Positions 1 through 30,343 of a DNA stretch of 64,000 bases are shown here, in pieces. This stretch comes from Escherichia coli O157:H7 (GTDB lineage: Bacteria; Pseudomonadota; Gammaproteobacteria; Enterobacterales; Enterobacteriaceae): assembly GCF_013167455.1 (NCBI RefSeq), contig NZ_CP038328.1, one strand, 5' to 3'. The notes under the pieces were generated by a model. The model worked only from the letters and a program-made list of their open reading frames with translations, searched no databases and was not told the origin of the DNA. Position 1 is the stretch's first letter; every line of letters starts with the position of its first letter. The position numbers and the translations under genes are program-made.

Positions 1-3000
1 ACTCAATAATCTCAGCCCAACTCTCATCAGTCTCTGGTACTGCCTCTGGCGTTGCCGAAACTTTAGTGTCAACGCTTTCCTGCGGTAAATGCACGGCTTT
101 ACGGCTGGTAAAGGTCATATCCGGCAGGAACTGTAACAGGTTTACCAGTCGCCAGAAGCCATTGAGTCCCGCTTCATAACCGTCATCCTGCGTATAGCGA
201 TCGTCAAAACAGATATGCAAACGCAGCCAGCTGCGCATTTGTGCGACGCTGGTCGTCGGTTTAATGGCTTGTTGTGGTAACACCGAAGCCAGCTCAATAA
301 ATTGCTGCGATGAGTTACAGCTATCGAGTAAACCACCAAAGACAAACGGTTCGTCTGGCAAAAGCTCTGCTAGCCGCCAAGCTGGCGCGTTTTCCTGCAT
401 TTCATAGGCATACTTTTGTTTCGTTCCCGCGTCCTGTGACTTCTTCACATCCAACCACACCCAGGCATGTGCAGCAGCCATTCTCTGCCATAACTGCGTT
501 CTTCCGCCCGGATCGGCGAGATAATCCAGCAGCAGTGCAAAACTGTTGCGTTCCCGGAACGACGCTTCAAGGGCCGCAAAGTTGGTATCATGAAACAGGT
601 TATAAAACTTAGGCTGTTTCATATCCGGGTTATGCCCAAGTCCCAGGACATCCTGAACATGTTTAAGCCCTGGCTCTTTGAGATCGGCCCACGTGACTGT
701 CCACACCCAGAAATTACCGCTATCCCGAATCGCCTGGCGTTTTTGCACATCCTCTGCGACGCTATTTTTGTGGAACGCAAAGCCATCAAGGAAAATAGCC
801 ACCGGTTTAATGGCATCAGACTGCATAAGCGGATATAGCACGTAATCCGGGCGACAAGGGATCCCCACCGCCTCTTTAGCGCCTAAATCCACCTGAGCTT
901 TAAGATGCCAGCTCATCATCGGTTCGCTGCGGGTGTTAATAATCCACCCAGCGCCCTGATGCGCGTAACTGCGACTGACAATCAGGTTTTTATTTTCTTG
1001 CAGGCAGCTAATAAACCGTTTTTCCAGCTCACTGCCCATCATGGCTTCGAGGGAAATGTTTTTGATGGAATCAATTACCCGTATCGAATCTCTTGCCTGC
1101 AAAATTTTCGCCAGCAAGAGACGCGCCTGATCGCGGGAGACATACTTCATGCGCCCACGGTCACGGTAAGCGTAAACGCAACGATAACAACCATCTTTAT
1201 GCGTATCATTGTTGCAACTGCATTCCACTATTGCCTGATAGGCCAGTTCAAGTAATTTCAGCAAATTGTCGGGAGTGCGCATCAGTTCTTTAAGAGAACC
1301 AGTCCCCCCCGGGACGGTATCGTAAATCACCAGATACTGCCGCCAGGATTCGCCTTCATTTTCCGGCTCGCGGTACACAACGCCTTTCAGGTGATCGACA
1401 TTCCCCTTGAAGTAATGTTTAAGACCGAGCTGGATCGCCGCCCCAAGAGAAGCCTCCACGACACGGTCATTACTGTAACTGCTTACCGGGAGCAGAATAC
1501 GCAACGCTTCTGACTCCAGCTGGCGATAGAGGTAGAGATAATCTTCGAACTTCGCCTTTTCCGGTTCCGTGCGATATTTGCAGCTCAAATCATGACGTGG
1601 TTCATGATCGCGAGGACGCTGCACCATGCCGCACCCGAGGCAAACTTTAAACCCGGTTCGCTTCTTCGCTTCTCCGGCAATCATCAACTCATTGGCATCA
1701 TCCGCCATTTTGCCGAAGTTGATATCCCGCAGGGTGACTTTGCTTAAAAATTCAAAACCAAACGGAACTTCGCCTTCCTCAATCGCGTATGCCGCCGATA
1801 CATCTTCTTTTTCGAAACTAACCAATAGCTGACGCTGGAAGAAAGCAGGTTCACGGCTGTCGCTCTCGTCGCTGATCTGGCTATCACGTGCGCTGGCGCG
1901 GGCATAAACCTGGCGAAGTTTCAGCAGCGTGGTTTTTTGTCCGGCATCGGCCCACCCCGGTGTGCCACATTTCGGGCAATATTTATGCTGGTCGCCCGTC
2001 TGGTCGATATTTTCGCTGTAGTTACAGTGGCTACAGATACGCCAGTTCTCCGGCTCAGAGACCTTCAGGTCTATCTGCTCAATTTCAACTTTATGCCCAC
2101 CGGCATAGAAATTATTCAGCGGAGCCAGCTCAGCCAGCGCCGTTGATGCCGGGCGTTCATATTCGAAAGTGGTGTTTTGATATTCACGTGCTTCCCCGCC
2201 TTCTTTACGCCGCCAGAGCACAGAACGTAACGTAATACCGGCTTCCGGGAAGGCGTAGTTAGGCAGCAGACCTTCATCCGTGAGGAAATTCAGCGTTTGC
2301 TTATTGTTGATTTGATTGACCAGCGCCATCAGCGCCTGCCGTTCCGAAGTTAACTCGCGCATATCGCTATCAAAGTTTTGATCGCGCGGCGCGTTCTCCA
2401 GTTTATCGATACTGCGCTTGAGTTTATCGATGCGTGAGCGCAAAGATTTGCGATCTTCCACCAGCAGTTTTAACGCTTCTTCGATACGCTGCACCAGCGA
2501 GCGTTGTCCTGGCGCGCCCTGAAGATAAGACAACAGCTGTTGGCGAGTTTCTGCGGCAAGATCGGGGAAGATTGCCGTAAATTGCGCAGCAATCTCCGCA
2601 TGATGCTGTTCGATATATCGCAGTAAGTTATACGGAAAACCCGATTTACGCCCGAACTCCAGCTCATCCAGCATCTGTTTGACGTTTTTACAGATAGCGG
2701 ATTCTGGTACACCGGTTTTCACCCAGTTATCCATACAAAAAGCTGCCAGCTGGCGTTCGAGAATAGCCGTTGCATTAAGGAAGACGCCAGGAGCCTGCAC
2801 CTGGCCCTGCATCATCTCCAGTGGTTCTTCAAAGAAAAACTGATCGTGCGGGTTCCCTTCTGCCACGGTAATGTTTAACGCGTTACCATCTTTACGACCG
2901 GCGCGACCAATACGCTGCAAGTAGTTGGCCTGAGCAGGTGGGACAGAACAGAGTAAAACGGTGGAAAGATCCCCAACGTCAATACCCATCTCCAGCGTCG

Positions 3001-6000
3001 GTGTTGCCGACAACAGGTTGATATTCCACGGTTGGTTGCCGCGGTAGAACGATTTTTCGGTGACTTCGCGATCTTCACGGCTAAGCAGCCCCGTGTGTTC
3101 TGCGCCCTGTACGCGCGCGATGTCCATGTTCTCCCAACGCCAGGTCGCCGTATTGTCGACTTCCTGGTAACGACCTTCACAACGTAAAGAGAGACAAGGC
3201 GCATTACGCCACTGCCAGCCTTGATCGGCCGGAGCCCGGACAACCTCACGGCAACATGAGCAATTAAGCTGAACGACGTCACGGCTCACCACCAGCGCCG
3301 AAGGCACCAGTCCCCAGGCTTCACGCCCTTTGGTGTCAAAATCTTTTACTACTCCGGCTATTTTCAACGCCGTAAACAGGCGTCGTAACACTGTTTCCGC
3401 AACGCTACTGATAAACAGATTATTGCCGTTACTCAGCGTGCGATTGATCCAATGCTGATACCAACTGGGGTTAGACTTCGCGCCAATCAGGCGATGGAAA
3501 CCATTAATTTTTTCAAACGACGCATAAGCCGGTTTACGCGTTTTCGGACCGATAGAAGGCATATAGCGCGAGGTACGCTCTTTTTGCGTCATCATAAAGG
3601 TCGTGCCATCACGGCGATAACTTTCGAACGCCGGATGCATAACGGCCCCGGCCTGGCGTTGATACCAGATAACCCCCAGCGCCAGGTGCGCTACCTGCTC
3701 GACGCTCACACCAGACATCTCATCACCCAGCTCTTCACAAAGCTGTTGATGCAGGGCGGTAATTGCCGGATTGAAGCGATCTTTATCCACTCCGGCAACG
3801 GCATAACCGGTGGCTTCCAGCGTACGTCCGATACGCGCGCGCAGGGTAAATTCGCTGTACACCTCCCAGTCGAGGCGCAGGGAAACCAGCTCCGGCAGAT
3901 CGGAGTTCTCCGCCAGTTTGCCTTCATTTTTCAGCGTCTGATAATCATTCAGCCACTGCATATTTGGTGCGATGACGTTTGCTGCAAAATGAGCATCGTC
4001 CGGTGAACGTTCACGCGTTTGTTGGCAAACACGCGCCGCGAACGCATCCAGCGGTAATGTCTCTTTTTCGCTAAGAACACTGGCGATTTGCCCACGAATC
4101 ATCAGCGGCCAGGTACGGGCAGTAAAGAAGCTGGCACGATGCGCGGCGTCTTGTACCGAGTCAGAAAACGTAATCAGCTTTTTATGTTCGTTGAACTGGC
4201 TGCCATAAAGCTGGTGAATCATCACCGCCGACAGACTGGCAGCCCGTGACCCCAGAATCGAAATCCCCTGTTTGCTGTTGCAGTACGGGCATTCATTAGC
4301 AAACTCCAGCTCGTCCTTACGCTCTTTGAGCATATCCGGGATCAGTACCTGCAACAGTTCCGTATGACCGCAATGTCCACACTGGACGCTGGACTGTCGG
4401 TTCAGTTTCAGACAGGTAGGACACAGTTTCTGGTGTGCGCCACTGACCGCTTTTTCGTTGTTATCCGGGAAAGCAAGGACGATGGAGCGCCCTTTTTCAA
4501 AGAACTGGCGATAAATGCCGTCGAGGTCTGTTTCCAACTGAACGCTTTGCCCATGACGCAGGCTGGCCCAGCCAGTTGCGTGGCAGTCACGGCAGTGGAT
4601 AACCGGCAAATAGTGTTCGCGATCTTCCACCGCCACATCATCGGCAAACACCAGTCGGGGCGTTTTCGCCACGCTGGCGACCAGACGACGCATCTCACGA
4701 AGCCACAACTGGGAGCGCAGTTGCACAAACGGCAGCACCGGACGCGCTTTCTTCGCCTGGAGACGTTTTTGCCGATCGTGTTCCGTTTCCGGTACTTCGA
4801 GACGTGCCTGCGCGATCAGTGCCAGAATGCTTTGCAGCACGCGTCGGGCATGGTCGGCGCTTTCTGCCAGCATGACCTGGAGATTTTCCAGACACTCTCG
4901 TTCAGAGAGGATCCCGCCTTGCAGATCATGGAGTAAGACATGCATCACGCTGTGGCGGCGTAACAGTGACCCCAGCGCAATACGCTTTTCACGCCCGTCG
5001 TCGCTCTCCAGATCGTCCGGGAGTTGCAAGTCGCTGTCGGGGAACCACAAAGGGATTTGCCCGTTAAGATACGCTACCGGGGTAGCGTAACTCTGCGGGT
5101 CCAGGGCCGAAGCGACCTCCGGCCCCGGATACTGACTGTACGCAATGGCGTAATTCTGCAAGTACTCCGCTGCCGTGTAGCGATCTTCGCGAATAACGGC
5201 GTCATCGGTAAACGGCTGGTCAAAGATTGTTTTTGCGTAATCGAGCAGTTGCCCCAGTTCGTCGCCGACGGTAGCTGATGTCCCGACGCAGGCGAATCGT
5301 TGGTTATCCACACCTATGTGATGCTTCAAACGTCGCACCAGACAGGCCAGATCCGACCCTTGCGCGCCATCAAACGTATGCAATTCATCCACGACCAGGT
5401 AACGCAATGAACCGGGCTGGTTGTAACGCCAGAGCGGCTGATCGCCAGGGCGCATCAGCAGGTAGTCGAGCATTTTGTAGTTGGTCAACAGGATGTCCGG
5501 CGGGCTTTCGCGCAGCGTGTGCTTACAGGTAATGACCTTTTCTGCCGACATTTTTTTGCTGGGTTCGATTTCGCTGTCGCCGACAAACAGGCCGACGGTC
5601 ACCTTGCCATGCAGTTGTGGATCGCTGGCGATGGTTTTGGCGAAACGGCTGGCCTGATCGGTTGCCAGGGCGTTCATCGGGTAGATGATAATCGCTTTAA
5701 CCCCGGCTTGTGACGCGCCCGCGCAGTGGTTGAGCAGCGGGAACATAAAACATTCTGTTTTACCGGAGCCGGTACCGGTTGCGACCAGCGTCGGCTGTGG
5801 CGCGTCGCTTCCCAGACGCTGAAATGCCCGGGCCTGATGCGCGTGCGGCGGGAACGGCAGCGTCAGATTAGGGAAAAAATTCAGCGGTAAGTCACTTTTA
5901 CGAAACGGCAACTGGGCGGAAAGGTATGGTCCTTTCAGCAGCGTTTCCGGCTGGGCCAGAAATTGCTCCAGCATTGAGACATTATCGTTATTCTCACCGT

Positions 6001-6088
6001 TAAACAGCGGGCTGTTTAGCGGGAACGCCGCCCGTAAAAAGGCGGCAACGCTGTCGGCGACCTGCCGACTGACAACGGACGGCAACAT
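1..6088 (-). CDS. Giant DExH-box helicase with C-terminal Cys-cluster/DUF1998-like region (DruE / DrmA-DrmB-like); partial, runs off window start (>2029 aa)
   Basis: Absent from ORF track because no stop codon lies inside the window. ATG at 6088-6086 overlaps the TGA of the upstream gene (TGATG). Hand translation of this minus frame starts MLPSVVSRQVADSV. Walker A TLVATGTGSGKTECFM was checked codon by codon at 5791-5744; DELH box, QRIGRAGR motif and Cys cluster ECSCNNDTHKDGCYRC (~1215-1168) were read by eye. The track reports no >=60 aa ORF in this minus frame anywhere in 1-6088, while the other two minus frames have several, consistent with one continuous open frame. Confidence 0.7.
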   Translation of the reverse strand, partial: MLPSVVSRQVADSVAAFLRAAFPLNSPLFNGENNDNVSMLEQFLAQPETLLKGPYLSAQLPFRKSDLPLNFFPNLTLPFPPHAHQARAFQRLGSDAPQPTLVATGTGSGKTECFMFPLLNHCAGASQAGVKAIIIYPMNALATDQASRFAKTIASDPQLHGKVTVGLFVGDSEIEPSKKMSAEKVITCKHTLRESPPDILLTNYKMLDYLLMRPGDQPLWRYNQPGSLRYLVVDELHTFDGAQGSDLACLVRRLKHHIGVDNQRFACVGTSATVGDELGQLLDYAKTIFDQPFTDDAVIREDRYTAAEYLQNYAIAYSQYPGPEVASALDPQSYATPVAYLNGQIPLWFPDSDLQLPDDLESDDGREKRIALGSLLRRHSVMHVLLHDLQGGILSERECLENLQVMLAESADHARRVLQSILALIAQARLEVPETEHDRQKRLQAKKARPVLPFVQLRSQLWLREMRRLVASVAKTPRLVFADDVAVEDREHYLPVIHCRDCHATGWASLRHGQSVQLETDLDGIYRQFFEKGRSIVLAFPDNNEKAVSGAHQKLCPTCLKLNRQSSVQCGHCGHTELLQVLIPDMLKERKDELEFANECPYCNSKQGISILGSRAASLSAVMIHQLYGSQFNEHKKLITFSDSVQDAAHRASFFTARTWPLMIRGQIASVLSEKETLPLDAFAARVCQQTRERSPDDAHFAANVIAPNMQWLNDYQTLKNEGKLAENSDLPELVSLRLDWEVYSEFTLRARIGRTLEATGYAVAGVDKDRFNPAITALHQQLCEELGDEMSGVSVEQVAHLALGVIWYQRQAGAVMHPAFESYRRDGTTFMMTQKERTSRYMPSIGPKTRKPAYASFEKINGFHRLIGAKSNPSWYQHWINRTLSNGNNLFISSVAETVLRRLFTALKIAGVVKDFDTKGREAWGLVPSALVVSRDVVQLNCSCCREVVRAPADQGWQWRNAPCLSLRCEGRYQEVDNTATWRWENMDIARVQGAEHTGLLSREDREVTEKSFYRGNQPWNINLLSATPTLEMGIDVGDLSTVLLCSVPPAQANYLQRIGRAGRKDGNALNITVAEGNPHDQFFFEEPLEMMQGQVQAPGVFLNATAILERQLAAFCMDNWVKTGVPESAICKNVKQMLDELEFGRKSGFPYNLLRYIEQHHAEIAAQFTAIFPDLAAETRQQLLSYLQGAPGQRSLVQRIEEALKLLVEDRKSLRSRIDKLKRSIDKLENAPRDQNFDSDMRELTSERQALMALVNQINNKQTLNFLTDEGLLPNYAFPEAGITLRSVLWRRKEGGEAREYQNTTFEYERPASTALAELAPLNNFYAGGHKVEIEQIDLKVSEPENWRICSHCNYSENIDQTGDQHKYCPKCGTPGWADAGQKTTLLKLRQVYARASARDSQISDESDSREPAFFQRQLLVSFEKEDVSAAYAIEEGEVPFGFEFLSKVTLRDINFGKMADDANELMIAGEAKKRTGFKVCLGCGMVQRPRDHEPRHDLSCKYRTEPEKAKFEDYLYLYRQLESEALRILLPVSSYSNDRVVEASLGAAIQLGLKHYFKGNVDHLKGVVYREPENEGESWRQYLVIYDTVPGGTGSLKELMRTPDNLLKLLELAYQAIVECSCNNDTHKDGCYRCVYAYRDRGRMKYVSRDQARLLLAKILQARDSIRVIDSIKNISLEAMMGSELEKRFISCLQENKNLIVSRSYAHQGAGWIINTRSEPMMSWHLKAQVDLGAKEAVGIPCRPDYVLYPLMQSDAIKPVAIFLDGFAFHKNSVAEDVQKRQAIRDSGNFWVWTVTWADLKEPGLKHVQDVLGLGHNPDMKQPKFYNLFHDTNFAALEASFRERNSFALLLDYLADPGGRTQLWQRMAAAHAWVWLDVKKSQDAGTKQKYAYEMQENAPAWRLAELLPDEPFVFGGLLDSCNSSQQFIELASVLPQQAIKPTTSVAQMRSWLRLHICFDDRYTQDDGYEAGLNGFWRLVNLLQFLPDMTFTSRKAVHLPQESVDTKVSATPEAVPETDESWAEIIE

Positions 6089-9000
6089 CAGGCGCTCTCC
6101 TTATCTTGTGCAAAGAACGCCCAGGCCACTTTGTAGTCATCTTCGCGATCTGGCTTGATAAACGGAGCCTGCCAGGTGACGGTACGGCGCTCACCTTCGT
6201 CGCTGCGGGTATAATCATCAAAGGTGACGCTGACGGTACCGGTTTTAAGATGTTTGACATCATCCCAACCGATAGCTTGATCGGTGCAGTCACCGCCGGT
6301 CCACTCCGGGCTGTCGACGTTAAAGACAAAGCCGTTTTTCAGGTCAGCTTTACGCGCGGTGCGAGGCAAGCCAACGCCCACCAGCCCTTTGCTTGGGGTA
6401 AAGATAATGCGACCGTTTTGATCGTACCAGGTATCCGCTTCGTACTGGCGCATCACCGGGAACTGAACGCGATAAATGGTAAGCAGCTCTTCGAGAGTTA
6501 ACCCCAGCGCCTGCGCCACCAATACGTCGATTTCCACCAGCGCCTGACGACGACTGTAGTCAGAGCGTAAAGCGCAGTTACGCTGCCACTCTGGGGTCAG
6601 TTTGGCGAAGAAATCCTGGGGGAGCTGCGGGAGATCGCGGCTCCAACGCTGGGTGTTGAAGTCTGGGGTGTAGCAGGATTGCCAAAGGCCAGCATATACA
6701 TCATTTACAGAATTTAATGATAATACTAAGCAGTATAATAATGCCTTTTGTCTCGGATTGAATAATACGTATGAGAAACCATCAAGCATCTGATGTAAGT
6801 TTGCCTTGCCAGTAGATTTACAAATAAAATCAAAAGGTAAAGAAAAACACATACCTGAATGTTCGAGTAACAGATTCTGTGAGCTATAGCAGTAAGAACG
6901 TACTGCGTTCATGTGACTTATTTCTGGCGGATAAATAGCACTAATTAGTGTACGTTCCCCCGATTGAGCCAACATGGCTCTGATAGCTAAGCGATAATAA
7001 TCTGTTACCTTCTTCGGTTCATCTTCAGCCAGTTCAGTCCATGTAACGCATGGAGTACGTTTTGCATACTCCTGTGCATCACATGCCGGAATGTAGTTAG
7101 TGCGCGGCAGATAGTCGTCAGGCAGAGTTAGCAAGTCCAGGCAGTCATAATCGCTGTTAAGCGTACAGTTTTCGCGCGGAGTCTTGTAGAACGGCGTCCC
7201 AACAAAGAAATGAGGGCCAGACAGTACCCATTGTGATGAATCTTGAGGGAATTGAGTCTGCCGTAAAATTGTCCCATCCCTCTGAGCATATGTTTCATCG
7301 AACATAACCGTTGAAAAATACTGCCCCTGCAAATCACCTAATCTATTCGGCTGATTAGCAAACTTTTCCAGTACAGCAACAAGTTGTTTAGCATGTAAGG
7401 CTGGCAAACGTGCCTGCCAGGCTGGCGTTCCTTCGCTGTCATATAGACGAGCAAATAATTCTAGCTCATGAGTGGCGATACTTATTAATCGAGAACGGTG
7501 GCCAGATGTGTTCCATACAACTTTTAATTTTCCCTCGCTCTCAATCTCGTCTTTGAGACCGGGAATGTCCCCACTGCCAGAATGTTCAAAACATGCATCA
7601 ATAGTTTGCGGAGCATACAAATTAGATATATGTTCAAATCCCACTGTGCTAGGGCTAGCAGAATAAATATTGCTGCTAAACTTCGCATGGTGATCAACTT
7701 CAACAAACAAATTTAACTCATTCTGAAACTGAAAATGCGCCCTCAGCCTCGGATATACCGCCGCACGTAATTGCCCGCCTTTCGGGTCATCATAAATCCC
7801 TTCCGGGTGCAGGAAACCTGCCACGCCTTTCTGCGCCCCTAATCGCCAGGCCTGCGGCAGAAAGCATTTATACAAGTTGGTCTGCACCCCGCGCAGTACC
7901 GGGTAGTTCTGCTGCGCATTCAGGAAGTTTTGCATCCCTTCACAGCCTTCATACTCGCTGCGCCAGGCCGCTTCCAGCGCCGGGATCTGGTTAAAGGTAT
8001 CAATACGCAACGTTGCCAGCTTCGAGGCGCTCAGCTTACGCAGCACAAATTCCGGCTCGTAATCACCCAGCACGCCCGCTTCCTGCCATTCCACTTTCAG
8101 CCACGGCGGGTTTCCGAGCATCAGGTCAAAACCGCCGCGCTCGGCAAACAGGTCGCAGAACTCCAGATCCCAGTGGAAGAAACGGTGCTGCTTTCTCAGG
8201 GCATCGACAATCGCCAGACGCGGCAAATGACGGAACAACACCTCGGTTTTCAGACGACCAGCAACAGAAAACAGCGAAGACTCTTCTCGCAGCAGGCCTT
8301 CTTCGGCAAACAGATCGCCGGTGGTGTGCTCCGCAACTTCAGTGACTTTTTCCGTGATTACAATCCCGTCAAGCAGGGTTTCAATCTCAAACAACCAGGT
8401 GCCGCGATCCGGTAGCTCATCGGCTTTGTCGATCGGCCAGAACCACAGCGCGCACCAGTAGTCCATTACCCAACGCAGCTTCTGGTAGGCGCTGTTATCT
8501 TCAAGACGACCGCTAAAGGTTTCATCTTTACTGCTCAGCGAAGAACGCGTCTGCTCGCTGTTTTCTGCCGGCCACACCGGGTAGCTGTCGGCGGTTTTCA
8601 GACGTTCTGCTTTAAGTTGCTGGCGATAGGTGTTCCACAGTGCTTCCACCTTTTCGCTGATACGCTGCACATCAGCAATCTCATGCCCGGCAAAGCTTTT
8701 AATAAACTCTTTGCGCCAGCTGTCCAGCGCTTTGAAGTCATCCGGATAACGCTGCTTAACAGTTTTATCGCTGTAGTTAGCCATACCGCCGTCGGGCAGC
8801 AGGAAGTGGAAAATCTGCGTCTCTTCACGCGGCGTGTTCATCGCCAGTTCGACCGGCTCGCTGTTAAGCCAGCTCGGATCTTTGGCTTTTTTGTAGGTCA
8901 GTTCGCTCTTGTTGAACACCTGACGGCGCGCGCCCACCAGCGAGTTACCGCAGTGCAGCTGGTAACCAAACCACGGTACAAACGCATCGCCACTAATGGC

Positions 9001-11022
9001 GTTCAGCCACAGCGACACTTCCGCCAGTTCCACCGCCACCGGGTTTAAGTCCACGCCGAAAACGTTGTTGTCGGCAATGTACATTTTCACCCGCTGTAAC
9101 TCCTGGGTGTAACGATCCTGCGGAATACGGCGACCTTCCGCCTGCTGCTTGTGGAACAGATACGCTTCCGCCAGCTGGTTGATGGCTTCGTTAAGGAACG
9201 CCGCGCTGCCCATCGCCGGTTCGCACACGGTGAGGTTTAAGATGGCATCAGCTTTGGCGTGCGGATCGCTAATGGGATCAATCTGCTCCTTAAACAGTTC
9301 TTTCAGGGCATATTTAACCAGTGAGCGGGTCAGCACTTCCGGGGTGTAATAAGAGGCAGATTTCTCACGGTCGCGCCCGGCCATACGGTAGATAAAGCTG
9401 CCTTTGCGGTGAATGCGCAGACTGCCGTCTTTCTCGTAGACCTTCTCGTCTTCGTGGTATTTGCTAATCTCATCCTTACTGACGAAGTAACCCGTCTCCA
9501 GCTCGTTAAACTCTTCCCCGGCTTTCTTCACCTCGTAGAGATCTTCGCTGGCGAAGAATCCGCGATAGGAGAGCAGCGCCTCATACACCGCACCCAACTG
9601 GTTGATACCCAACTGGCGATAAGAAATACGTCCGCGGCGGTTAAAGCGCCCTTTGGCCGGGCGGCTTAACGACATCGCCTGGATAATCTGTTGCAGGGTT
9701 TCGTTACGGAATACCACGCGGTTAAGAATGCGCGTGTTGTTGGCATCAAACAGATGACTTTCCAGACGCGGGACGCTGAACTGATGACTATGGATGGTGA
9801 TCCGGTCGCCGCTCTCCAGGTCACTCTGCATTTTCACGCCGCCGTTGTAGCCTTCGCGCACCAGTTTAAACAGCATATTCAGGCTGTCGTGGAAGTAGCG
9901 CCCGTTGCGATCTTCTTCGCTGGTCAGCGGGATCATCTCCAGATCGCGCAACGTTTCCAGGCTGTAACCTTGCAGATAGGTTTTGGCGGTCATTGGCGCA
10001 TAACCCAGCTCCGGGCGCGCTTCAATGTAGAACAGGAACAGCAGGCGGTACATGTAACGCAGACATTCGCGGCTCAGTTCATCCGGGTCCACCGCACGAT
10101 TACCTGTATAGTTTGCCAGGCCACGGTCGATCAGATAATGCATCGCTTCGTTGCCCAGCAACTCAATGCTTTCGCGCAGGGCATATTTCAGATCTTCCGA
10201 AACACCAAACGCATGTTTGTGCGAATTGTCATCCAGCGAGTCAAGATAAGGTGCCCCACTGCCCGGCAGCAGAGAATCTTTATGTAACAACACCGCAGTC
10301 GCTTTCAGCGTATCCGTTTCACGACGGCTTAAAATCTCTTCAAAATCAAAACGTAGCAGACGGTTTTGCGCCCACTTAGTACGGTCCAACAACAATAGCT
10401 GACGGTTACCGAGCAGCAGCACAAAACGCGGCGGTTCATTTTGGGTGAAGACCGCCGTAGAGAGCAAATCCTGCCAGCTGCGATATTCACCGTTGGCTTT
10501 TTTGCGCAGGCTGTCGTGCTTATGTTTGTCGGTATCCGCCGGGAATTGCGCGGTCAGTAAGGAGAGCGCCAGCGGATCCAGCGTTCCTTCTTCCTGATCG
10601 TGTGCTTCAACAATCCACAGCCACGGGCTACCGTCAGTGCTGTTGTAACGCGCCAGTACCGGCAGCGGTGTATCGTCATCCAGCATTTGGATCTGTGGCG
10701 TAATTTCGTAGCCCAGCGCCTTTAACAATGGCTGCCAGCGATTACGTTGATCGGCCAGACGCTGCGGGATCTGACGCTGTTTTTCGTGCTCGGCAAGTTT
10801 GCGGAAAAACTCAGTCGCCAGACTGTTAAACTGGTTCCACGGAGCGCGGTATCCCGGCTCCACGTCTTTGCCCTGTTCACGAGCGGCACGCTCCGCTTCA
10901 CGCGCTGCATTTTCCTGGGCTATCCAGGGTTCCAGCACATCGCGGATATCACTGGTGAAAACCTCACCCAAATAGTGGTTAGAGTAAAATTCGTTTTCGT
11001 TATTAATACCGACCAGCGCCAT
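6088..11022 (-). CDS. Large gamma-class N6-adenine DNA methyltransferase, PglX/MmeI-like (1644 aa), candidate DrmMI-like
   Basis: Track ORF. AdoMet motif I-like CEPAMGSAAFL, motif IV NPPW (FDLMLGNPPWLKV), YYTPEVL motif and N-terminal LRYMYRLLFLFYIEAR block typical of Type IIG/IIL and BREX/DISARM methyltransferases. GGAGGG Shine-Dalgarno 8 nt upstream; 2-bp gap to the upstream gene. Confidence 0.8.
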   Translation of the reverse strand: MALVGINNENEFYSNHYLGEVFTSDIRDVLEPWIAQENAAREAERAAREQGKDVEPGYRAPWNQFNSLATEFFRKLAEHEKQRQIPQRLADQRNRWQPLLKALGYEITPQIQMLDDDTPLPVLARYNSTDGSPWLWIVEAHDQEEGTLDPLALSLLTAQFPADTDKHKHDSLRKKANGEYRSWQDLLSTAVFTQNEPPRFVLLLGNRQLLLLDRTKWAQNRLLRFDFEEILSRRETDTLKATAVLLHKDSLLPGSGAPYLDSLDDNSHKHAFGVSEDLKYALRESIELLGNEAMHYLIDRGLANYTGNRAVDPDELSRECLRYMYRLLFLFYIEARPELGYAPMTAKTYLQGYSLETLRDLEMIPLTSEEDRNGRYFHDSLNMLFKLVREGYNGGVKMQSDLESGDRITIHSHQFSVPRLESHLFDANNTRILNRVVFRNETLQQIIQAMSLSRPAKGRFNRRGRISYRQLGINQLGAVYEALLSYRGFFASEDLYEVKKAGEEFNELETGYFVSKDEISKYHEDEKVYEKDGSLRIHRKGSFIYRMAGRDREKSASYYTPEVLTRSLVKYALKELFKEQIDPISDPHAKADAILNLTVCEPAMGSAAFLNEAINQLAEAYLFHKQQAEGRRIPQDRYTQELQRVKMYIADNNVFGVDLNPVAVELAEVSLWLNAISGDAFVPWFGYQLHCGNSLVGARRQVFNKSELTYKKAKDPSWLNSEPVELAMNTPREETQIFHFLLPDGGMANYSDKTVKQRYPDDFKALDSWRKEFIKSFAGHEIADVQRISEKVEALWNTYRQQLKAERLKTADSYPVWPAENSEQTRSSLSSKDETFSGRLEDNSAYQKLRWVMDYWCALWFWPIDKADELPDRGTWLFEIETLLDGIVITEKVTEVAEHTTGDLFAEEGLLREESSLFSVAGRLKTEVLFRHLPRLAIVDALRKQHRFFHWDLEFCDLFAERGGFDLMLGNPPWLKVEWQEAGVLGDYEPEFVLRKLSASKLATLRIDTFNQIPALEAAWRSEYEGCEGMQNFLNAQQNYPVLRGVQTNLYKCFLPQAWRLGAQKGVAGFLHPEGIYDDPKGGQLRAAVYPRLRAHFQFQNELNLFVEVDHHAKFSSNIYSASPSTVGFEHISNLYAPQTIDACFEHSGSGDIPGLKDEIESEGKLKVVWNTSGHRSRLISIATHELELFARLYDSEGTPAWQARLPALHAKQLVAVLEKFANQPNRLGDLQGQYFSTVMFDETYAQRDGTILRQTQFPQDSSQWVLSGPHFFVGTPFYKTPRENCTLNSDYDCLDLLTLPDDYLPRTNYIPACDAQEYAKRTPCVTWTELAEDEPKKVTDYYRLAIRAMLAQSGERTLISAIYPPEISHMNAVRSYCYSSQNLLLEHSGMCFSLPFDFICKSTGKANLHQMLDGFSYVLFNPRQKALLYCLVLSLNSVNDVYAGLWQSCYTPDFNTQRWSRDLPQLPQDFFAKLTPEWQRNCALRSDYSRRQALVEIDVLVAQALGLTLEELLTIYRVQFPVMRQYEADTWYDQNGRIIFTPSKGLVGVGLPRTARKADLKNGFVFNVDSPEWTGGDCTDQAIGWDDVKHLKTGTVSVTFDDYTRSDEGERRTVTWQAPFIKPDREDDYKVAWAFFAQDKESA

Positions 11023-11024
11023 GA

Positions 11025-13883
11025 TTAACCCTCCGCTCCGGTGATAACAGCAATTACCTGAATGTAGGGTTCTTTTTCAGTCGTCATGGTGTCCTCAATC
11101 CATTCGATATAGCTGTCAAAATTGTGTTCGATTTCGCGTTGTCTCTGCTCTTTACGGCTCTGCTTGACTGACAATTGCTGTTTGTTATCGGCAAAATCCA
11201 GCTCAAGTTGGCTCAACTGCCGCCCACGCAAAACGTCCAGCTTTTGCAGATGCTCATTCAGTTGCTGGTTAATGTGCGTTTCAAACGCATTCCGATCATG
11301 GATGAATACCTCCCGGGCATGAGCAATAGCCGCTTCCAGTAAATCCTGCTGGCGTTGGTGATTACGATCTTTACCGCCGCTGTTAGTCAGCTTGTTACTC
11401 AACTGCGGATGACGTTGTAAAAACTCAGCGAAAGGCTGACTGCCGATTAGCGATTCACGGTTAAAGCTCACCACTATCCACGGGTTCACCATCGGATGTG
11501 ATTTACGGTTCGGGAATAACCCGGAAAGAATGAAGTGATCTTCATCGGGTTCAAGCAGGTATGGCAGCCGGATAACCGGAGCCTGATGACGACCAAAAGC
11601 CGAAGAGATTTTATCGTCCAGCCACTGCACTACCGGGTTGATTTGCCAGAGATACTGCACATCGGGCCAGGCATGTTGCTCACCGCGAGCGCGCGCAATC
11701 GCGTCGGTGATGACGGTTTTATCCTGACTTAAATAGAGCTGCCAGTTCTCCGGGGCAATTTCAGGCGGTAGCTGGTTGAAGCGGCGGCGTAACTCCTCCG
11801 GTGCCACCAGCGACAAGGTATTATCAGGCAAGGTTTCATACTGGATAGTTTGACCACTGGCTTTCAGGTAACCCAATGCTCTTTCGCAGTACGCCTGTTC
11901 GCTGGCAAACAAGCTGGTGTCTGTTTCGGTGACCATTGAGGCATCGCTGGAAACCGCACTGCATATTTCGCCAAACAGATCGTGTTCGGCGCTTTCCGAG
12001 ACGTTGCTGTTCAGCAGTTGATCAAACAGGCTGGCACCATCATCCTGCATCATGAACTCTGCAACCTGCTCTTCTTCCTCTTCCTGGGTAAATTTGCCGG
12101 TAAACTCCGAACTGTCCCCAATGTTCTTCTGCGCCTGTTCGTCTTTGTTGATCAACACTTCCAGTACGCGCATATCGCCATTGATCTGTGGTTCGCTGGC
12201 CTCGGTAAGCAGATAGCGGATTTGGGGCTGATGTTTTTGCCCATAGCGGTCAATACGCCCGTTACGTTGCTGGAATACCATCAACGACCACGGAATATCA
12301 AAGTGAATCATTTTGTGGCTAAGGTGATGCAGGTTGATCCCTTCAGATGCCACATCCGAACAAACCAGAAGACGCAACGGCGACTGCGTTTTACCAAAGG
12401 CTTCTACGGTTTCCATCAATACCGTATCGCCCTGATCGCCGCGCAGCGTGGCGATCTGGTCATCTTTCAATTTCAGATCCGCTCGCAGTTGCTGTTCGAG
12501 GAACTCCAGCGTTTTAATACTTTCGGTGAAGATCACCAGGCGATCTTCCGTGTTATTGGCTTTCCAGGCGAGGTCTTTTCGGATGGTGTCGAGCAGCAAC
12601 TGGTATTTGCTAAACTGGCTGGCATCAATGTTATTCAGCGCCAACAGCAATGACTCCAGTTCGTTGATCTGGCTCTGGCTATTATGATCTTTACGGCTCT
12701 CAAGACGCTTCAGACGATTCGCCACGACGCTGGCACACGCCATCGGGCTGGAAAATAGCGCTTTTTCGAGGGTTATCTTGAACAGACGACCTTTGTTAGA
12801 CTGGGCCTGTTCATCGTCATCATCACGGAACTGGCTCTCAACCAGACGACGGTATGCTTCTTCTTCGGCACCGGATGCCAGGCGAGTCAATTTGACAATA
12901 TTGCGCTCGGGGAACTCGCCGGACATCTGATCTTTCACGTCTTTTTTGAAGCGACGGACAACCAGATTTTTATCGGCAAAATCGGCGTATTCATACTCTT
13001 TCGGGTTGGCGATCGCCGTCGGGTCAAGCATGTTCATCAGGCTGGCAAAACTTTCAGCCTTACCATCATGCGGTGTTGCTGAAAGCATAATCAGCGTATC
13101 GCTGCGCCCGGCGAGCAGTTTTGCCAGTTTACTGCGTAACGAACTGGTTCCACGTTCTGCGACGTTATGGGCCTCATCAATGACAATAATATCCCACCAG
13201 GCATTTTCCAGATGGTGACGATATTCAATGTCTTGTTTCAGCGTATCGATGGAGATAATGGTCTTGTCAAAATAGTGGAACGGGTTGTGGTTGGTTGGGA
13301 TGCGGTTACGCACCTTTTGTAAACCAGCAGAATCCAGGCGGGTCAATGGGATCGCAAAACGGCTCCAGAACTCCTTCTGGAATTGTGTCAGCATCGATTT
13401 AACCGCCAGAACCAGAATACGTTTTCCGCGCCCACGACGGATCAGTTCCGAAACCAGAATACCGGCTTCCAGCGTTTTACCCAGACCAACAGCGTCGGCA
13501 ATGAGTATCCGCTGACGCGGTTGTGCCAGCGCCATCCGCGTAGGATCGAGCTGAAACGGCATGGAATCCATCGCCGCCAGATGACCAAAATGGACTTTAC
13601 TGTCTGTCGGTACGCGTTGGCGTAACTGACTTTCAATATACAACTGTGCCGCTTGATAATTGGCGGATTCATCTTCCACCAAATGCGTTTTTGCGGGATC
13701 CAGGATCTCTACTTTTTGTTCCAGTTTGGTCAGAAATAACCCTTCTTTACCGCGCACAAGCTCTGAAATACCATCGCAGGTCAGCAAATACCCACCATCA
13801 CCACTGTCATCCGCCCGGCGAATACGCCATTCGGCATCACGAATAACCACCCGCATACCAGGTGCATAATTTTGCTTATTCAT
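11025..13883 (-). CDS. SNF2-family helicase (952 aa), candidate DrmD-like
   Basis: Track ORF. Motif I DAVGLGKT, motif II IVIDEAHN (DEAH), motif III LSATP, C-terminal helicase motifs DVASEGINL and QQRNGRIDRYGQ. Confidence 0.8.
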   Translation of the reverse strand: MNKQNYAPGMRVVIRDAEWRIRRADDSGDGGYLLTCDGISELVRGKEGLFLTKLEQKVEILDPAKTHLVEDESANYQAAQLYIESQLRQRVPTDSKVHFGHLAAMDSMPFQLDPTRMALAQPRQRILIADAVGLGKTLEAGILVSELIRRGRGKRILVLAVKSMLTQFQKEFWSRFAIPLTRLDSAGLQKVRNRIPTNHNPFHYFDKTIISIDTLKQDIEYRHHLENAWWDIIVIDEAHNVAERGTSSLRSKLAKLLAGRSDTLIMLSATPHDGKAESFASLMNMLDPTAIANPKEYEYADFADKNLVVRRFKKDVKDQMSGEFPERNIVKLTRLASGAEEEAYRRLVESQFRDDDDEQAQSNKGRLFKITLEKALFSSPMACASVVANRLKRLESRKDHNSQSQINELESLLLALNNIDASQFSKYQLLLDTIRKDLAWKANNTEDRLVIFTESIKTLEFLEQQLRADLKLKDDQIATLRGDQGDTVLMETVEAFGKTQSPLRLLVCSDVASEGINLHHLSHKMIHFDIPWSLMVFQQRNGRIDRYGQKHQPQIRYLLTEASEPQINGDMRVLEVLINKDEQAQKNIGDSSEFTGKFTQEEEEEQVAEFMMQDDGASLFDQLLNSNVSESAEHDLFGEICSAVSSDASMVTETDTSLFASEQAYCERALGYLKASGQTIQYETLPDNTLSLVAPEELRRRFNQLPPEIAPENWQLYLSQDKTVITDAIARARGEQHAWPDVQYLWQINPVVQWLDDKISSAFGRHQAPVIRLPYLLEPDEDHFILSGLFPNRKSHPMVNPWIVVSFNRESLIGSQPFAEFLQRHPQLSNKLTNSGGKDRNHQRQQDLLEAAIAHAREVFIHDRNAFETHINQQLNEHLQKLDVLRGRQLSQLELDFADNKQQLSVKQSRKEQRQREIEHNFDSYIEWIEDTMTTEKEPYIQVIAVITGAEG

Positions 13884-14106: not shown

Positions 14107-17100
14107 TTATCCAGCGATAATATAACTCCTAAGGTCATTACCCGGGGCAACAGCTCGCGCTCGCGTGTTTGCCAGCCGTTCAACTTGCTGCGGTACTCGC
14201 AGGGCAAAATCAAAGAAGGTATCTTCAATACAGCGCCAGTAGCTAAGCCCCATGTCGAGCAGGACATAATGCTGACTGCCATCGCTGAAGGTGACTGTCA
14301 GTTCTCGTCCATGCTCCGTACTCTGGTTATCCCCCGTTAACCAGCTAATTGCTCCCGGCCACGCAGGCCCCAGATATCCTTCTTCAAGTAAAGTGGTCAC
14401 AACCTGCTGACGATCTTCCTCATTAAGCCACGCGTTATAGAGAGCGTCGTGTTGGCGAGAGTTGTAATCCAATTTTTTGACGCAAACAGTGAGGCTGGCG
14501 CGTTCCGCCATTCCCTGTTCAACCAGCTCGGTTAAGATTTCACCTAACAAACGCGCCGTGAATGGGCTATTAAGATAACGATCGCTGTACTCAACATGCG
14601 TTATCTCTTTGTGGCGGGTAAATGCCTGCTTCCAGCCAGCGTGCTGTTGCGTGACTAACGACCAGAAACGCGAACCAAAACCTTCCAGCGGCCCGTCCAG
14701 TTGTTCACAGAGATTGATGCGCACCGCCCCGGTGGGTAAGGCGGGCAGTAAATCTTCTGCACTTAAGGTCTGACCCGAGAAGGTTTTTCCGGACGTTCCT
14801 TTAAGTGTCACTACTGGTGAAGACGCACTTTGTCCCCATAATTCACCAGGTGCAACGGTAGCGCTGTCGTCTGCGGCCCACTGTTGGCTTTGCCCTTCGC
14901 GAGTCACCTGCGCAAGCCAGCGCCCCTTTCCTTGCATGAGCTGCGCAGTGGCAATGGATTTCACTTGTAAGCGACCTCCCGGCATCGCCGCCAACGCGGA
15001 AAGCTGATGTCTGGAGCTATCAGTTAAGTTTGCCAGCGGCGTGGCCACCAGCAACTCAACATTCCCACCGGAGGAGGCAAACTGGAGCAACTCTTTAAAT
15101 AATGGCCATTGGGCAAAGTCCCACTGTTCCTGCGGCCCCGCAAGAACCAGCGAGCAGGAGTCATAAATCTCGCTGTTCAGGCATTGCGCAATACGTAAAC
15201 TCAGAGGGTTAGTTTCAACCCGGCTACCATCGCCGAAGTACTGATATTCTGGCGCGAGGTTAAGTCGCTGCAACCGTACATTGGTAAGCAGGGTTAATGC
15301 ATGGTGACGATCTAATCTGTTGACATAATGCTGACTGTCGTAGCTGAGCAAGCAGTGGTGACAGAATTTATCGCAACTGCAATCGAGCAATTTTCTGGCG
15401 TAATTAAAGACATCAGCCCAATGGTCGATCAATTGCACTGCATAACCTGCACCACCCGCATTATTGTCGTAAATGAAGATGGAATATCCGGTATAGCCAT
15501 TGATATCGCGCGCTTGCTGCGTCGTCACGCCCAGCTCAGTATTTTCGATACCCAATTTATGCGCTAACCCTTCACGCAAAGCGACCGCAAGGGAACGCGC
15601 GGCAACCTCATCACGGATCAACAGGCCATTATCATCATTGAGTTGCAGCTCAACCATATCTGTACGACTGCTATATCCCAACCACAGATCTTTATGCACA
15701 TGACCGTGGCACAATTTATTGCTCCCCTGACGATCGTTACTGCCCCCTCGCAACAGGTAATGCGTATTTTCCCTCTCTGGGTTCTTTAGATTTTCAGGGG
15801 TACGCTGGGGTTGAGTTTGAGATTCTGCCCGACCACATGAGAGGCAAATTGCGTAGCCGTGCCCAAATTCCCCTTCACTGAAGTGGAACAATTCCCCACT
15901 ATGGCTAAAACGGTAACGTCCTAGCCCAGCATCGGGTAAAGAAACCCACACCGAAGACGGTACAAGAACACGTGGATCTTTCCAGGGAAGTTGTGCAGGC
16001 ATGGATACATCATTATGTGCCTGATAACGAATATCTGTCGCAAAACCAACAGGCTGTAAATAACGCTTCACATCAAGTTGCTGTATATCCGCTTTGCAGT
16101 GACTACATTCGACAGGATGGGTAGTACTGGTTGCCCCCGCACCACATTTACGGCAATGCCAGAACCACGGAATATGATGATCGCCTGACAGCTCCTGCCC
16201 GCTGGCAAGCACCTTGCCAAGCATAATGCCCGAGGAACGATATACTTTTCCGCCCAATACCACATCTGCACCAGGCGCATACTCGCGTAATGCTGTAGGC
16301 AAATCACGGCTGGGCAATTTTTCAATACGACGAGAAAAGCTTTCTCCCCCTTCATTAGGGTCAGCCTGAGTGGCTTTTATTGCGCGACGTTTTTCCAGCT
16401 CATCTGCCGTCAGATAATTGAAATTGACTACGCCAACCGGGAAACCATGCCCCGGCAGGAACGCTTCACTAATGAGTTTAGAAAACAGATATGCACCGCG
16501 ATAATCACGAAGCTGATAAGCGATGGCTTTACCTGCTGGTGTTTCTTCCCACGCGCTGTTATCCGCCTTCAACGCTTCGATATTTTCCAACAGTATCGCA
16601 AGTTGGCTTCTCCAGCGGATATCAACCTGCTGCATCATTGCTTGTGTGCGGGTCAAGAGCTGGGTTGCCGTCAATGACATCAGTACGGTTCCCTGAGTAA
16701 GGCGTTTAAGTTTATCCGCCAGCTGATCGGCCTGGTGATTTAACCAATGGAGAAAACGAAGACACTGGCTCTCATCACCTTCAAAGAACCATTTGCAACT
16801 CAGTTTTGTCGCATCAGGAACTTCAGCTCGTAAAAACAGACCTAAAACCAGGGCATTAACATGTCGTTGAACAATACTACTGCTCCCAAAACGAACCCGT
16901 GGCGCACTGGCAGTAGTGTTGAACGCCCAGAGGGGGTCTTTGAATACCTCCATTCCATGCGCCGTGTTTTTACATAACGTAATGGCAGCAGATGCACTCT
17001 CTCCACGACGCCCCGCGCGACCTGCACGTTGCAAATAATTTGCCGGCGCTGGAGGAACGTTGTTCATTGCCACCAAACTCATACCACCAATATCCACCCC

Positions 17101-30144: not shown

Positions 30145-30343
30145 AATGGTCTTCCTTCCATTGGTATCTCGTGAGTATACAAGCAATATCGAATCGGCAA
30201 ATATACTCATTAGTATACTCACAAGCCTGTTGATGTGGGTTGGTTCAGGTTGACTTCAGTTGAGGAGAAAAGCTGGAAAAGCCTTGCGTGGCGCGGATTT
30301 CAGGCATAAAAAAAGACCTCAGTTGAGGTCTATTTACATACTT

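Follow-up and report, generated by a model that had tools for sequence, protein, structure and literature searches.

The stretch analyzed here (the window) comprises 64,000 nucleotides of contig NZ_CP038328.1 (assembly GCF_013167455.1) from Escherichia coli O157:H7, and shares 100% identity with genomes of E. coli O157:H7, among them Sakai and EDL933. Its subject is armB, part of a four-gene cluster, armABCD, that was named ARMADA type II in 2025 (PMC12458937; bioRxiv 10.1101/2025.09.22.677730). armB is one open reading frame (ORF) on the minus strand, predicted to encode a PglX/DrmMI-like N6-adenine DNA methyltransferase of 1644 amino acids (aa), and is 100% identical in ∼300 other O157:H7 genomes. 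Its counterpart in Sakai is ECs_5262 on the element SpLE6, a z5900-type locus. The PADLOC profile REase_MTase_IIG (PDLC03614) matches ArmB over its full length (E 1.7e-286), and the DrmMI profiles match partially (E 6e-57), at residues ∼538–706 of the catalytic core only.

An ARMADA II operon is described as having a strict order: a BrxHII/SNF2-like ArmA, a PglX-like ArmB, a YprA-like ArmC and a GajB-like UvrD helicase, ArmD (PMC12458937). The same order is found here, through profile matches of ArmA in the window and of ArmC and ArmD at the Sakai locus, and ArmB itself matches the experimentally validated system of E. coli O157:H7 NCTC 12900/EDL933 (z5899-z5902). ARMADA has been defined as DISARM-related and ArmB as a PglX-like, YeeA-related methyltransferase, with defense requiring all four arm genes; the ArmB mutation N971A, in the NPPW motif, abolishes defense, and G605A weakens it while partial defense is kept (PMC12458937). 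In the window allele, residue 971 is the N of NPPW and residue 605 the G of EPAMGSAAF, the same positions as those mutated. Of the phage barriers of EDL933, ARMADA II is the strongest, deletion of armB is viable with loss of defense, and island diversity among 426 E. coli lies mostly in armB (bioRxiv 10.1101/2025.09.22.677730). We found no statement on a target recognition domain (TRD), a methylation motif or mosaicism of ArmB in either source.

The composition of armB is interrupted by an AT-rich block. In 300-nt sliding windows across the gene, GC is 0.39–0.48 at ∼6600–7800 and 0.55–0.58 on either side. Two-breakpoint likelihood segmentation places the best block at 6688–7737, encoding residues 1095–1444, in close agreement with the AT-rich segment of ∼1 kb at 6690–7740 that the initial annotation had described within an otherwise GC-rich methyltransferase gene; as it had also proposed, the block lies downstream of the catalytic NPPW motif (residues 971–974). 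GC is 0.418 within the block versus 0.547 in the rest of the gene, and the log-likelihood ratio of the segmentation is 27.5, whereas 100 codon shuffles average 4.7 and reach 10.7 at most. The GC content at third codon positions (GC3) is 0.357 in the block, against 0.644 on its upstream side and 0.642 on its downstream side. Since these positions show the largest shift, the drop is not just an effect of amino acid composition, and an artifact of that kind is ruled out as its cause. The block is exceptional inside armB and not region-wide: 17% of equal-length windows in the 64-kb stretch are as AT-rich, since at that scale the stretch is a compositional patchwork.

To place this block among its relatives we used ten E. 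coli alleles and 120 near-full-length alleles from E. coli, Salmonella, Klebsiella, Cronobacter, Pantoea and Providencia. The larger set is made up of cluster representatives taken in order of their similarity to the query, so that its type counts are lower bounds and its type frequencies are biased. armB is present in 525 of 5426 complete E. coli genomes, many of which match in two or three pieces. Relative to the window protein, the ten E. coli alleles are 96–100% identical over residues 1–1000 and 1472–1644 and 25–70% identical over ∼1100–1470, a fall in similarity confined to the region where it had been anticipated. Across 130 alleles from Enterobacterales, residues 1–1000 and 1476–1644 share ∼98% identity, which drops to 35–60% over ∼1100–1470. 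Pairwise identity within the 120-allele set averages 0.98 over residues 1–1000, 0.57–0.64 over 1101–1200 (module A), 0.69–0.94 in a middle segment at ∼1196–1345 (0.94 at 1301–1325), 0.41–0.61 over 1351–1450 (module B) and 0.94–1.0 in the C-terminal domain. At 4-fold degenerate sites the scaffold differs by 0.03–0.07 and the variable modules by 0.5–0.86, which amounts to saturation. The transitions between these levels of divergence are completed within ∼10 codons, at residues ∼1100, ∼1190, ∼1300–1340 and ∼1450–1470.

Several alleles are mosaics of segments that match the window allele and segments that do not. Breakpoints at ∼1300–1340 are present in L002 (strain EC42405), L004, L005 (ATCC 8739) and L012 (CREC_5). 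L002 has zero mismatches over 1300–1450 and is saturated over 1100–1300, and L012 has the converse arrangement, being identical to the reference over 1100–1230 and saturated over 1340–1450. L004 and L005 have the same middle segment as the reference, flanked on both sides by different sequence. When modules are clustered at 85% identity (A, residues 1101–1200; B, 1346–1470), there are at least 11 types of A and at least 15 types of B, with a between-type median identity of 0.43 for each. The two modules assort semi-independently in these alignments, with 29 A-B combinations and five four-gamete violations. In addition, an identical ArmA (accession WP_001041505.1) lies beside three different ArmB alleles with different TRDs. 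The full block of the window is found in 308 genomes at ≥99% identity, essentially the O157:H7/O55:H7 clade, and nowhere outside armB; it is single-copy per genome.

Considered together, the alleles show repeated replacement of the TRD, whole or in part, evidently by homologous recombination between copies of the island. The idea of a swapped module is therefore borne out as far as exchange is concerned, although not as a single foreign insertion: within the block, two or more modules have been exchanged independently to give a mosaic. Nearly all of the variation in the island falls within the TRD, which explains the published remark on armB as the variable island gene. Insertion of a mobile element or of a separate gene was considered as an origin of the block and is ruled out by the continuous reading frame, by the conserved lengths of the alleles (1631–1646 aa) and by homology of the block across the family to other phyla.

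Low GC accompanies this exchange in every allele. GC3 is 0.21–0.51 in the variable tract of each, compared with 0.63–0.69 in the scaffold, and in module A it is 0.21–0.40 in all alleles. In L010 the divergent tract reaches upstream to residue ∼1000, and there the segment 1001–1095 has a GC3 of 0.26, versus 0.57–0.69 in the other alleles. Because this extended tract alone drops in GC3, the low GC belongs to the imported DNA and not to the position in the protein. The foreign composition read into the block at first is thus real as low GC, but it is common to all alleles: AT-richness characterizes the TRD allele pool in its entirety and does not point to a single, recent insertion of foreign DNA. 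An AT-rich pool of this kind is reminiscent of hsdS genes.

Between the module types of Enterobacterales, divergence (median identity 0.43) is as great as that between ArmB and its homologs in other phyla. As this divergence between types matches that between phyla and the synonymous sites are saturated, the comparison points to old alleles that have been kept and exchanged rather than to recent divergence. We identified no donor lineage and no other protein family with the same module; a protein search with the block alone gave fragmentary ArmB-like proteins at 45–79% identity from many phyla. To judge from the distribution of the alleles, transfer between genera evidently occurs for the island as well as for its TRD modules.

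The armB scaffold, at 87–94% overall identity, is also carried on plasmids, which account for 16 of the 534 places where it occurs in the E. coli genome set (for example L004, on pYLPD7b of E. coli PD7). It occurs in Salmonella, Klebsiella, Cronobacter, Providencia and Pantoea as well; P0021, P0032, P0047, P0067, P0082, P0118 and P0120 are plasmid or other-genus examples. Among these, P0032 (Salmonella) has the A module of the window allele, and P0021 (Cronobacter) has its B module.

The fold of the block was addressed by prediction. No sequence relatives in the Protein Data Bank were found with ArmB or with an ArmB-family profile, and fold comparison alone gave matches; Pfam identifies methyltransferase families only, ending before residue ∼1090. 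Deep homologs were collected (4154 representatives, E ≤0.001) and two AlphaFold models were built. The model of residues 930–1644 has a mean predicted local distance difference test score (pLDDT) of 91.1 and a predicted template modeling score of 0.90, and matches M.BseCI, CamA, M.TaqI, PglX/BrxX, BpuSI, LlaBIII, DrdV and MmeI, together with specificity subunits such as EcoKI HsdS. Fold-comparison scores are 11.3 for M.BseCI, 11.2 for PglX, 10.8 for CamA, 10.2 for the PacII S subunit, 9.8 for BpuSI, 9.6 for M.TaqI, 9.3 for S.BsaXI, 9.1, 8.7, 8.0, 7.6 and 6.3 for HsdS chains, 8.1 for MmeI, 5.3 for LlaBIII and 4.5 for DrdV, and ≤3.8 thereafter. Modeled by itself with high confidence (pLDDT 93.6), the block matches TRDs or specificity subunits only, those of M.BseCI, PglX, CamA, M.TaqI, MmeI and Type I HsdS. 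The predicted TRD fold lies directly C-terminal to the catalytic domain. In deep homologs the same region is the least conserved, with 0.16–0.5 identity to ArmB, whereas the catalytic motif and the C-terminal domain both reach ∼0.65. The models thus show the AT-rich block to encode the TRD fold of ArmB, and the initial annotation of it as a swapped target recognition module is supported; a change of recognition motif, which that annotation also invoked, would follow from the exchange.

Together these results give a layout in which the TRD is set between two near-invariant domains (Table 1). NPPW is invariant in 71 deep homologs, and the motif that binds S-adenosylmethionine (SAM) is likewise invariant across deep homologs. 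The motifs at the TRD junctions are near-invariant among alleles (DLLTLPDDYLPRTNYIPAC...). Within the methyltransferase domain, a loop at residues 1041–1048 is dimorphic, reading PVLRGVQT in 100 of the 120 alleles and AVLAGQKA in the other 20, in surroundings that are otherwise invariant, and so resembles a mini-cassette; at the nucleotide level it has 13–18 mismatches per 30 nt in L003, L009 and L010 and 0–1 in other alleles. By analogy with a loop in the methyltransferase domain of BrxX that reads one base pair (PMC11842806), it may provide an extra DNA contact. In the C-terminal domain, alleles differ by 0.05–0.21 at 4-fold sites, compared with 0.03–0.07 in the first 1000 residues, which suggests that recombination tracts often reach beyond the TRD into the 3′ end of armB. 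The ∼0.65 identity of this domain in distant homologs suggests a role in binding partners.

We consider it probable that, as a whole, the AT-rich block is the TRD of ArmB and is exchanged by recombination in modules, with an expected effect on the motif recognized. In the model that we favor, ArmB would act as a single-chain gamma-class N6-adenine methyltransferase needed for ARMADA II function, with its TRD set between the methyltransferase and C-terminal domains, both near-invariant, and with modules A and B on either side of a conserved core. This core and the conserved flanks would serve as crossover sites for homologous recombination, and therefore whole TRDs or single modules could be exchanged among island copies of Enterobacterales. 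Each exchange would alter the motif bound and methylated by ArmB, and with it both what counts as self DNA and which incoming DNA is attacked by ARMADA II, so that lineages probably come to carry different self marks. Phages and other mobile DNA would exert a frequency-dependent pressure that keeps many alleles in circulation, and the block stands out in every allele because TRD alleles share a lower GC than the scaffold. Differences in specificity between alleles, phage or mobile-element pressure as the selective agent, and the reading of different parts of the target by A and B are what we infer from the pattern of exchange. More tentatively, and with the balance somewhat against it, the TRD may be a two-module combinatorial reader, in which the target is asymmetric or bipartite, A and B are each responsible for a different part of it, and recombination at the core (∼1296–1345) generates composite specificities.

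Some points weigh against this model. The likeness to known TRDs is at the level of the whole fold, and no methylation motif for any ArmB allele was found in the literature searched. The SAM-site mutant G605A keeps partial defense (PMC12458937), and ArmB may therefore do more than catalyze methylation. Furthermore, a TRD fold indicates that DNA is read and not what drives the diversification, for which evasion of phage inhibitors that bind the TRD, as Ocr does in BrxX (PMC11842806), is also possible. Literature searches likewise gave no usable O157:H7 methylome from which the ArmB motif could be taken. Published O145:H28 methylomes contain GATC and CTGCAG only, and do not bear on O157 because armB is a pseudogene in two O145-type records.

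Among other explanations of the block, diversification in place by point mutation, for example under selection in a phage arms race, would require no exchange and would attribute the AT-richness to mutation bias. The universal GC-to-AT bias could indeed lower GC in weakly constrained sequence, and deep homologs are also less conserved in the block than at the catalytic motif and the C-terminal domain. However, such a process does not accommodate a rise at 4-fold sites from 3–7% in the adjacent scaffold to 0.5–0.86 in the block within ∼10 codons, the identical sub-segments common to different alleles (module B of L002, module A of L012, the middle segment of L004 and L005), the four-gamete violations or the extension of the L010 low-GC tract over a stretch where every other allele is GC-rich, and we regard it as very improbable. 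Exchange between lineages should also be distinguished from a programmed cassette that switches within the cell, as in a shufflon, a phase-variable specificity gene or repeat slippage. Modular TRDs with conserved recombination sites do resemble invertible hsdS loci. Nevertheless, tblastn with ArmB residues 1001–1644 and blastn with positions 6088–8100 match only armB itself in the 64-kb window, and armB contains neither homopolymers of ≥7 nor simple-sequence repeats except (GC)4. The block occurs once per genome, in armB, and is the same in the 308 genomes of the O157:H7/O55:H7 clade; the sole integrase-like ORF is a truncated fragment 20 kb away. A shufflon or phase-variable locus is excluded here, with neither a second TRD copy in the window nor repeats in the gene, and a switching cassette of any form has a negligible chance of being correct. 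With no local switching machinery in the window (silent cassettes, repeats or a recombinase), the variation is therefore between lineages and not within the cell.

Two further explanations accept exchange of the TRD and differ from the favored model in its purpose. Selection might act to evade phage anti-defense proteins that bind the TRD (Ocr-like DNA mimics or other inhibitors), in which case the alleles may share one specificity. Ocr contacts residues of the BrxX TRD that also contact DNA (PMC11842806), and ARMADA II, as the dominant defense of enterohemorrhagic E. coli (EHEC), is therefore a likely target of phage inhibitors. Yet mimics of the Ocr type use non-specific DNA-binding surfaces and inhibit BrxX homologs whatever their motif (PMC11842806), so wholesale module replacement is not the expected route of escape. 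Moreover, 35–45% identity between module types in a fixed fold resembles the TRDs of HsdS, MmeI-family and PglX proteins that differ in specificity, as is established for these enzymes (see also PMC11842806). We consider inhibitor evasion unlikely as the main cause. Alternatively, ArmB might not methylate in vivo, its TRD being only a sensor that recruits ArmA, ArmC and ArmD, so that exchange would retarget the attack with no self mark. In line with this, methylation by ArmB is not mentioned in PMC12458937, deletion of armB is viable and abolishes defense rather than causing autoimmunity, and G605A is only partly defective. The sensor-only explanation is nonetheless quite unlikely: the NPPW and SAM motifs are invariant in deep homologs and N971A abolishes defense, a sequence-targeted attacker with no self mark would attack the host chromosome, PglX of BREX is needed for defense and methylation alike, and does methylate (PMC11842806), and a 2026 review groups ARMADA with modification-based systems.

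Relative to both papers on ArmB, what is new here is the placement of armB variability in the predicted TRD, the two-module mosaic with defined breakpoints and the composition signature that tracks imported tracts. Variation in the TRD, exchange in two modules and a catalytic motif needed for defense lead to the prediction that ARMADA II is sequence-specific, epigenetically gated and variable between lineages. Discrimination of self from non-self by ARMADA II, the dominant phage barrier of EHEC O157:H7, thereby becomes directly testable. If the combinatorial reading is true, a Type I-like logic would operate inside a single-chain PglX-like methyltransferase, and the at least 11 A and at least 15 B types would form a ready library for decoding and reprogramming ARMADA II recognition. 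For phage therapy of EHEC, prior growth of the phages in a strain whose TRD allele matches might allow them to escape ARMADA II.

Table 1. Features of the armB locus and domain layout of ArmB (positions refer to the window)
Feature	Position	Strand	Evidence or remark
armB	6088..11022	-	ORF, PADLOC match, 100% identity to Sakai/EDL933
SAM-binding motif EPAMGSAAF, residues 601-609 incl. G605	9196..9222	-	weak Pfam MmeI_Mtase and N6_Mtase matches, 547-680
Catalytic motif IV NPPW, residues 971-974	8101..8112	-	Pfam Eco57I match, 938-979
Dimorphic loop in methyltransferase domain, residues 1041-1048	7879..7902	-	PVLRGVQT or AVLAGQKA
Predicted TRD, residues ~1096-1471	6610..7737	-	AT-rich hypervariable block
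TRD module A, residues ~1101-1195	7438..7722	-	hypervariable
TRD middle segment, residues ~1196-1345	6988..7437	-	semi-conserved; near-invariant core ~1296-1345 (6988-7137)
TRD module B, residues ~1346-1471	6610..6987	-	hypervariable
Conserved C-terminal domain, residues 1472-1644	6091..6609	-	allele identity 0.94-1.0
armA, SNF2/BrxHII/DrmD-like helicase	11025..13883	-	PADLOC DrmD 1.4e-99; BrxHII profiles
armC, YprA/DruE-like helicase	1..6088	-	first 2029 codons, runs off window start; frame identical to N-terminus of Sakai ECs_5263
armD, GajB-like UvrD helicase	outside window		Sakai locus, GajB/UvrD profiles
DruE	14107-20430	-	Druantia III profile
DruH	20421-23780	-	Druantia III profile
Zorya II	23935-27465		divergent from armB strand
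Truncated integrase-domain ORF	29317-30222	-	
tRNA-Leu(CAA)	40415-40499	-	island adjoins

The partners of ArmB in the island were assigned by profile. On ArmA, NCBIfam DISARM_DrmD scores 350, under its cutoff of 610. Full-length ArmC of Sakai has DruE-like PADLOC matches and a C-terminal ZorE/HNH match. This protein (ECs_5263; L001 13935-20276) is DruE-like along most of its length, at 2113 versus 2107 aa, and ends in a ZorE/HNH-like segment (residues 2021–2096) in place of PLD domains; ArmC and DruE thus form a pair of paralogous giant helicases 5 kb apart on the same island.

Elsewhere in the window, druH and Zorya II (20000–28000) are also AT-rich, with a GC of 0.35–0.41, and an ORF at 54751–56505 (minus strand) has a GC of 0.30 and no NCBIfam match. 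Directly after Zorya II, the ORF at 27850–28857 (plus strand) matches NCBIfam NF045808, "phosphorothioated DNA-binding restriction endonuclease" (E 4e-125), and no dnd/ssp modification genes were seen among the ORFs scanned around it. The integrase remnant lies ∼10 kb inside the island relative to tRNA-Leu(CAA), a position that suggests a composite or decayed integrative element (SpLE6).

The closest system for comparison is PglX/BrxX of Type I BREX (structures 8c45, 8q56 and 9ewz). BrxX consists of a methyltransferase domain, then a TRD of "two alpha/beta subdomains", then a conserved C-terminal domain, and its TRD is the most variable part, engineering of which changes the recognized motif (PMC11842806). 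The layout of ArmB appears to parallel this, with a conserved C-terminal domain in the same position. ArmB differs in being longer, with a TRD of ∼375 aa that is about twice the 187 aa of the BrxX TRD, and a two-module mosaic is not described for BrxX in the available sections of PMC11842806. With NCBIfam BREX_1_MTaseX and BREX_6_MTaseX, ArmB scores 25–28 bits against cutoffs of 500 and 900, far from BREX membership, and its partners are the helicases ArmA, ArmC and ArmD, whereas those of BREX are BrxA, BrxB, BrxC, PglZ and BrxL.

ArmB also resembles DrmMI of DISARM class I, as an adenine methyltransferase beside an SNF2 helicase (DrmD/ArmA) and a YprA-type helicase with DUF1998. Unlike DISARM, the cluster has no separate drmA, drmB or drmC genes; ArmC corresponds to a fused DrmAB-like protein, and the GajB-like ArmD is added. 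With DrmMI matches at ∼538–706 only and no separate DrmA, DrmB or DrmC, ArmB falls outside DISARM class I DrmMI. In contrast to Type I HsdS, which is a separate subunit, the modules of ArmB lie within the methyltransferase polypeptide, and we found no evidence for involvement of a second methyltransferase protomer. Pfam detects methyltransferase families and no endonuclease domain in residues 1–1100, and this absence of a Pfam-detected nuclease may set ArmB apart from the classical Type IIG enzyme, as from Type IIL/IIG (MmeI family, DrdV and BpuSI) and Type ISP (LlaGI/LlaBIII) proteins. Candidates for the ARMADA nuclease are found in the partner proteins, in the HNH-like C terminus of ArmC, and ArmB works only with the three helicases. 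Swapping of TRDs and reassortment of two modules are classical behavior of Type I HsdS, and enzymes of the MmeI family, Type ISP and BREX are also on record as having undergone replacement of their TRDs. Conceptually, therefore, ArmB adds one more case to the TRD-swapping theme of HsdS, the MmeI family, Type ISP and PglX, and no new principle. By analogy, it would work like PglX/BrxX and DrmMI, yet in both sequence and genomic context it stands outside either family.

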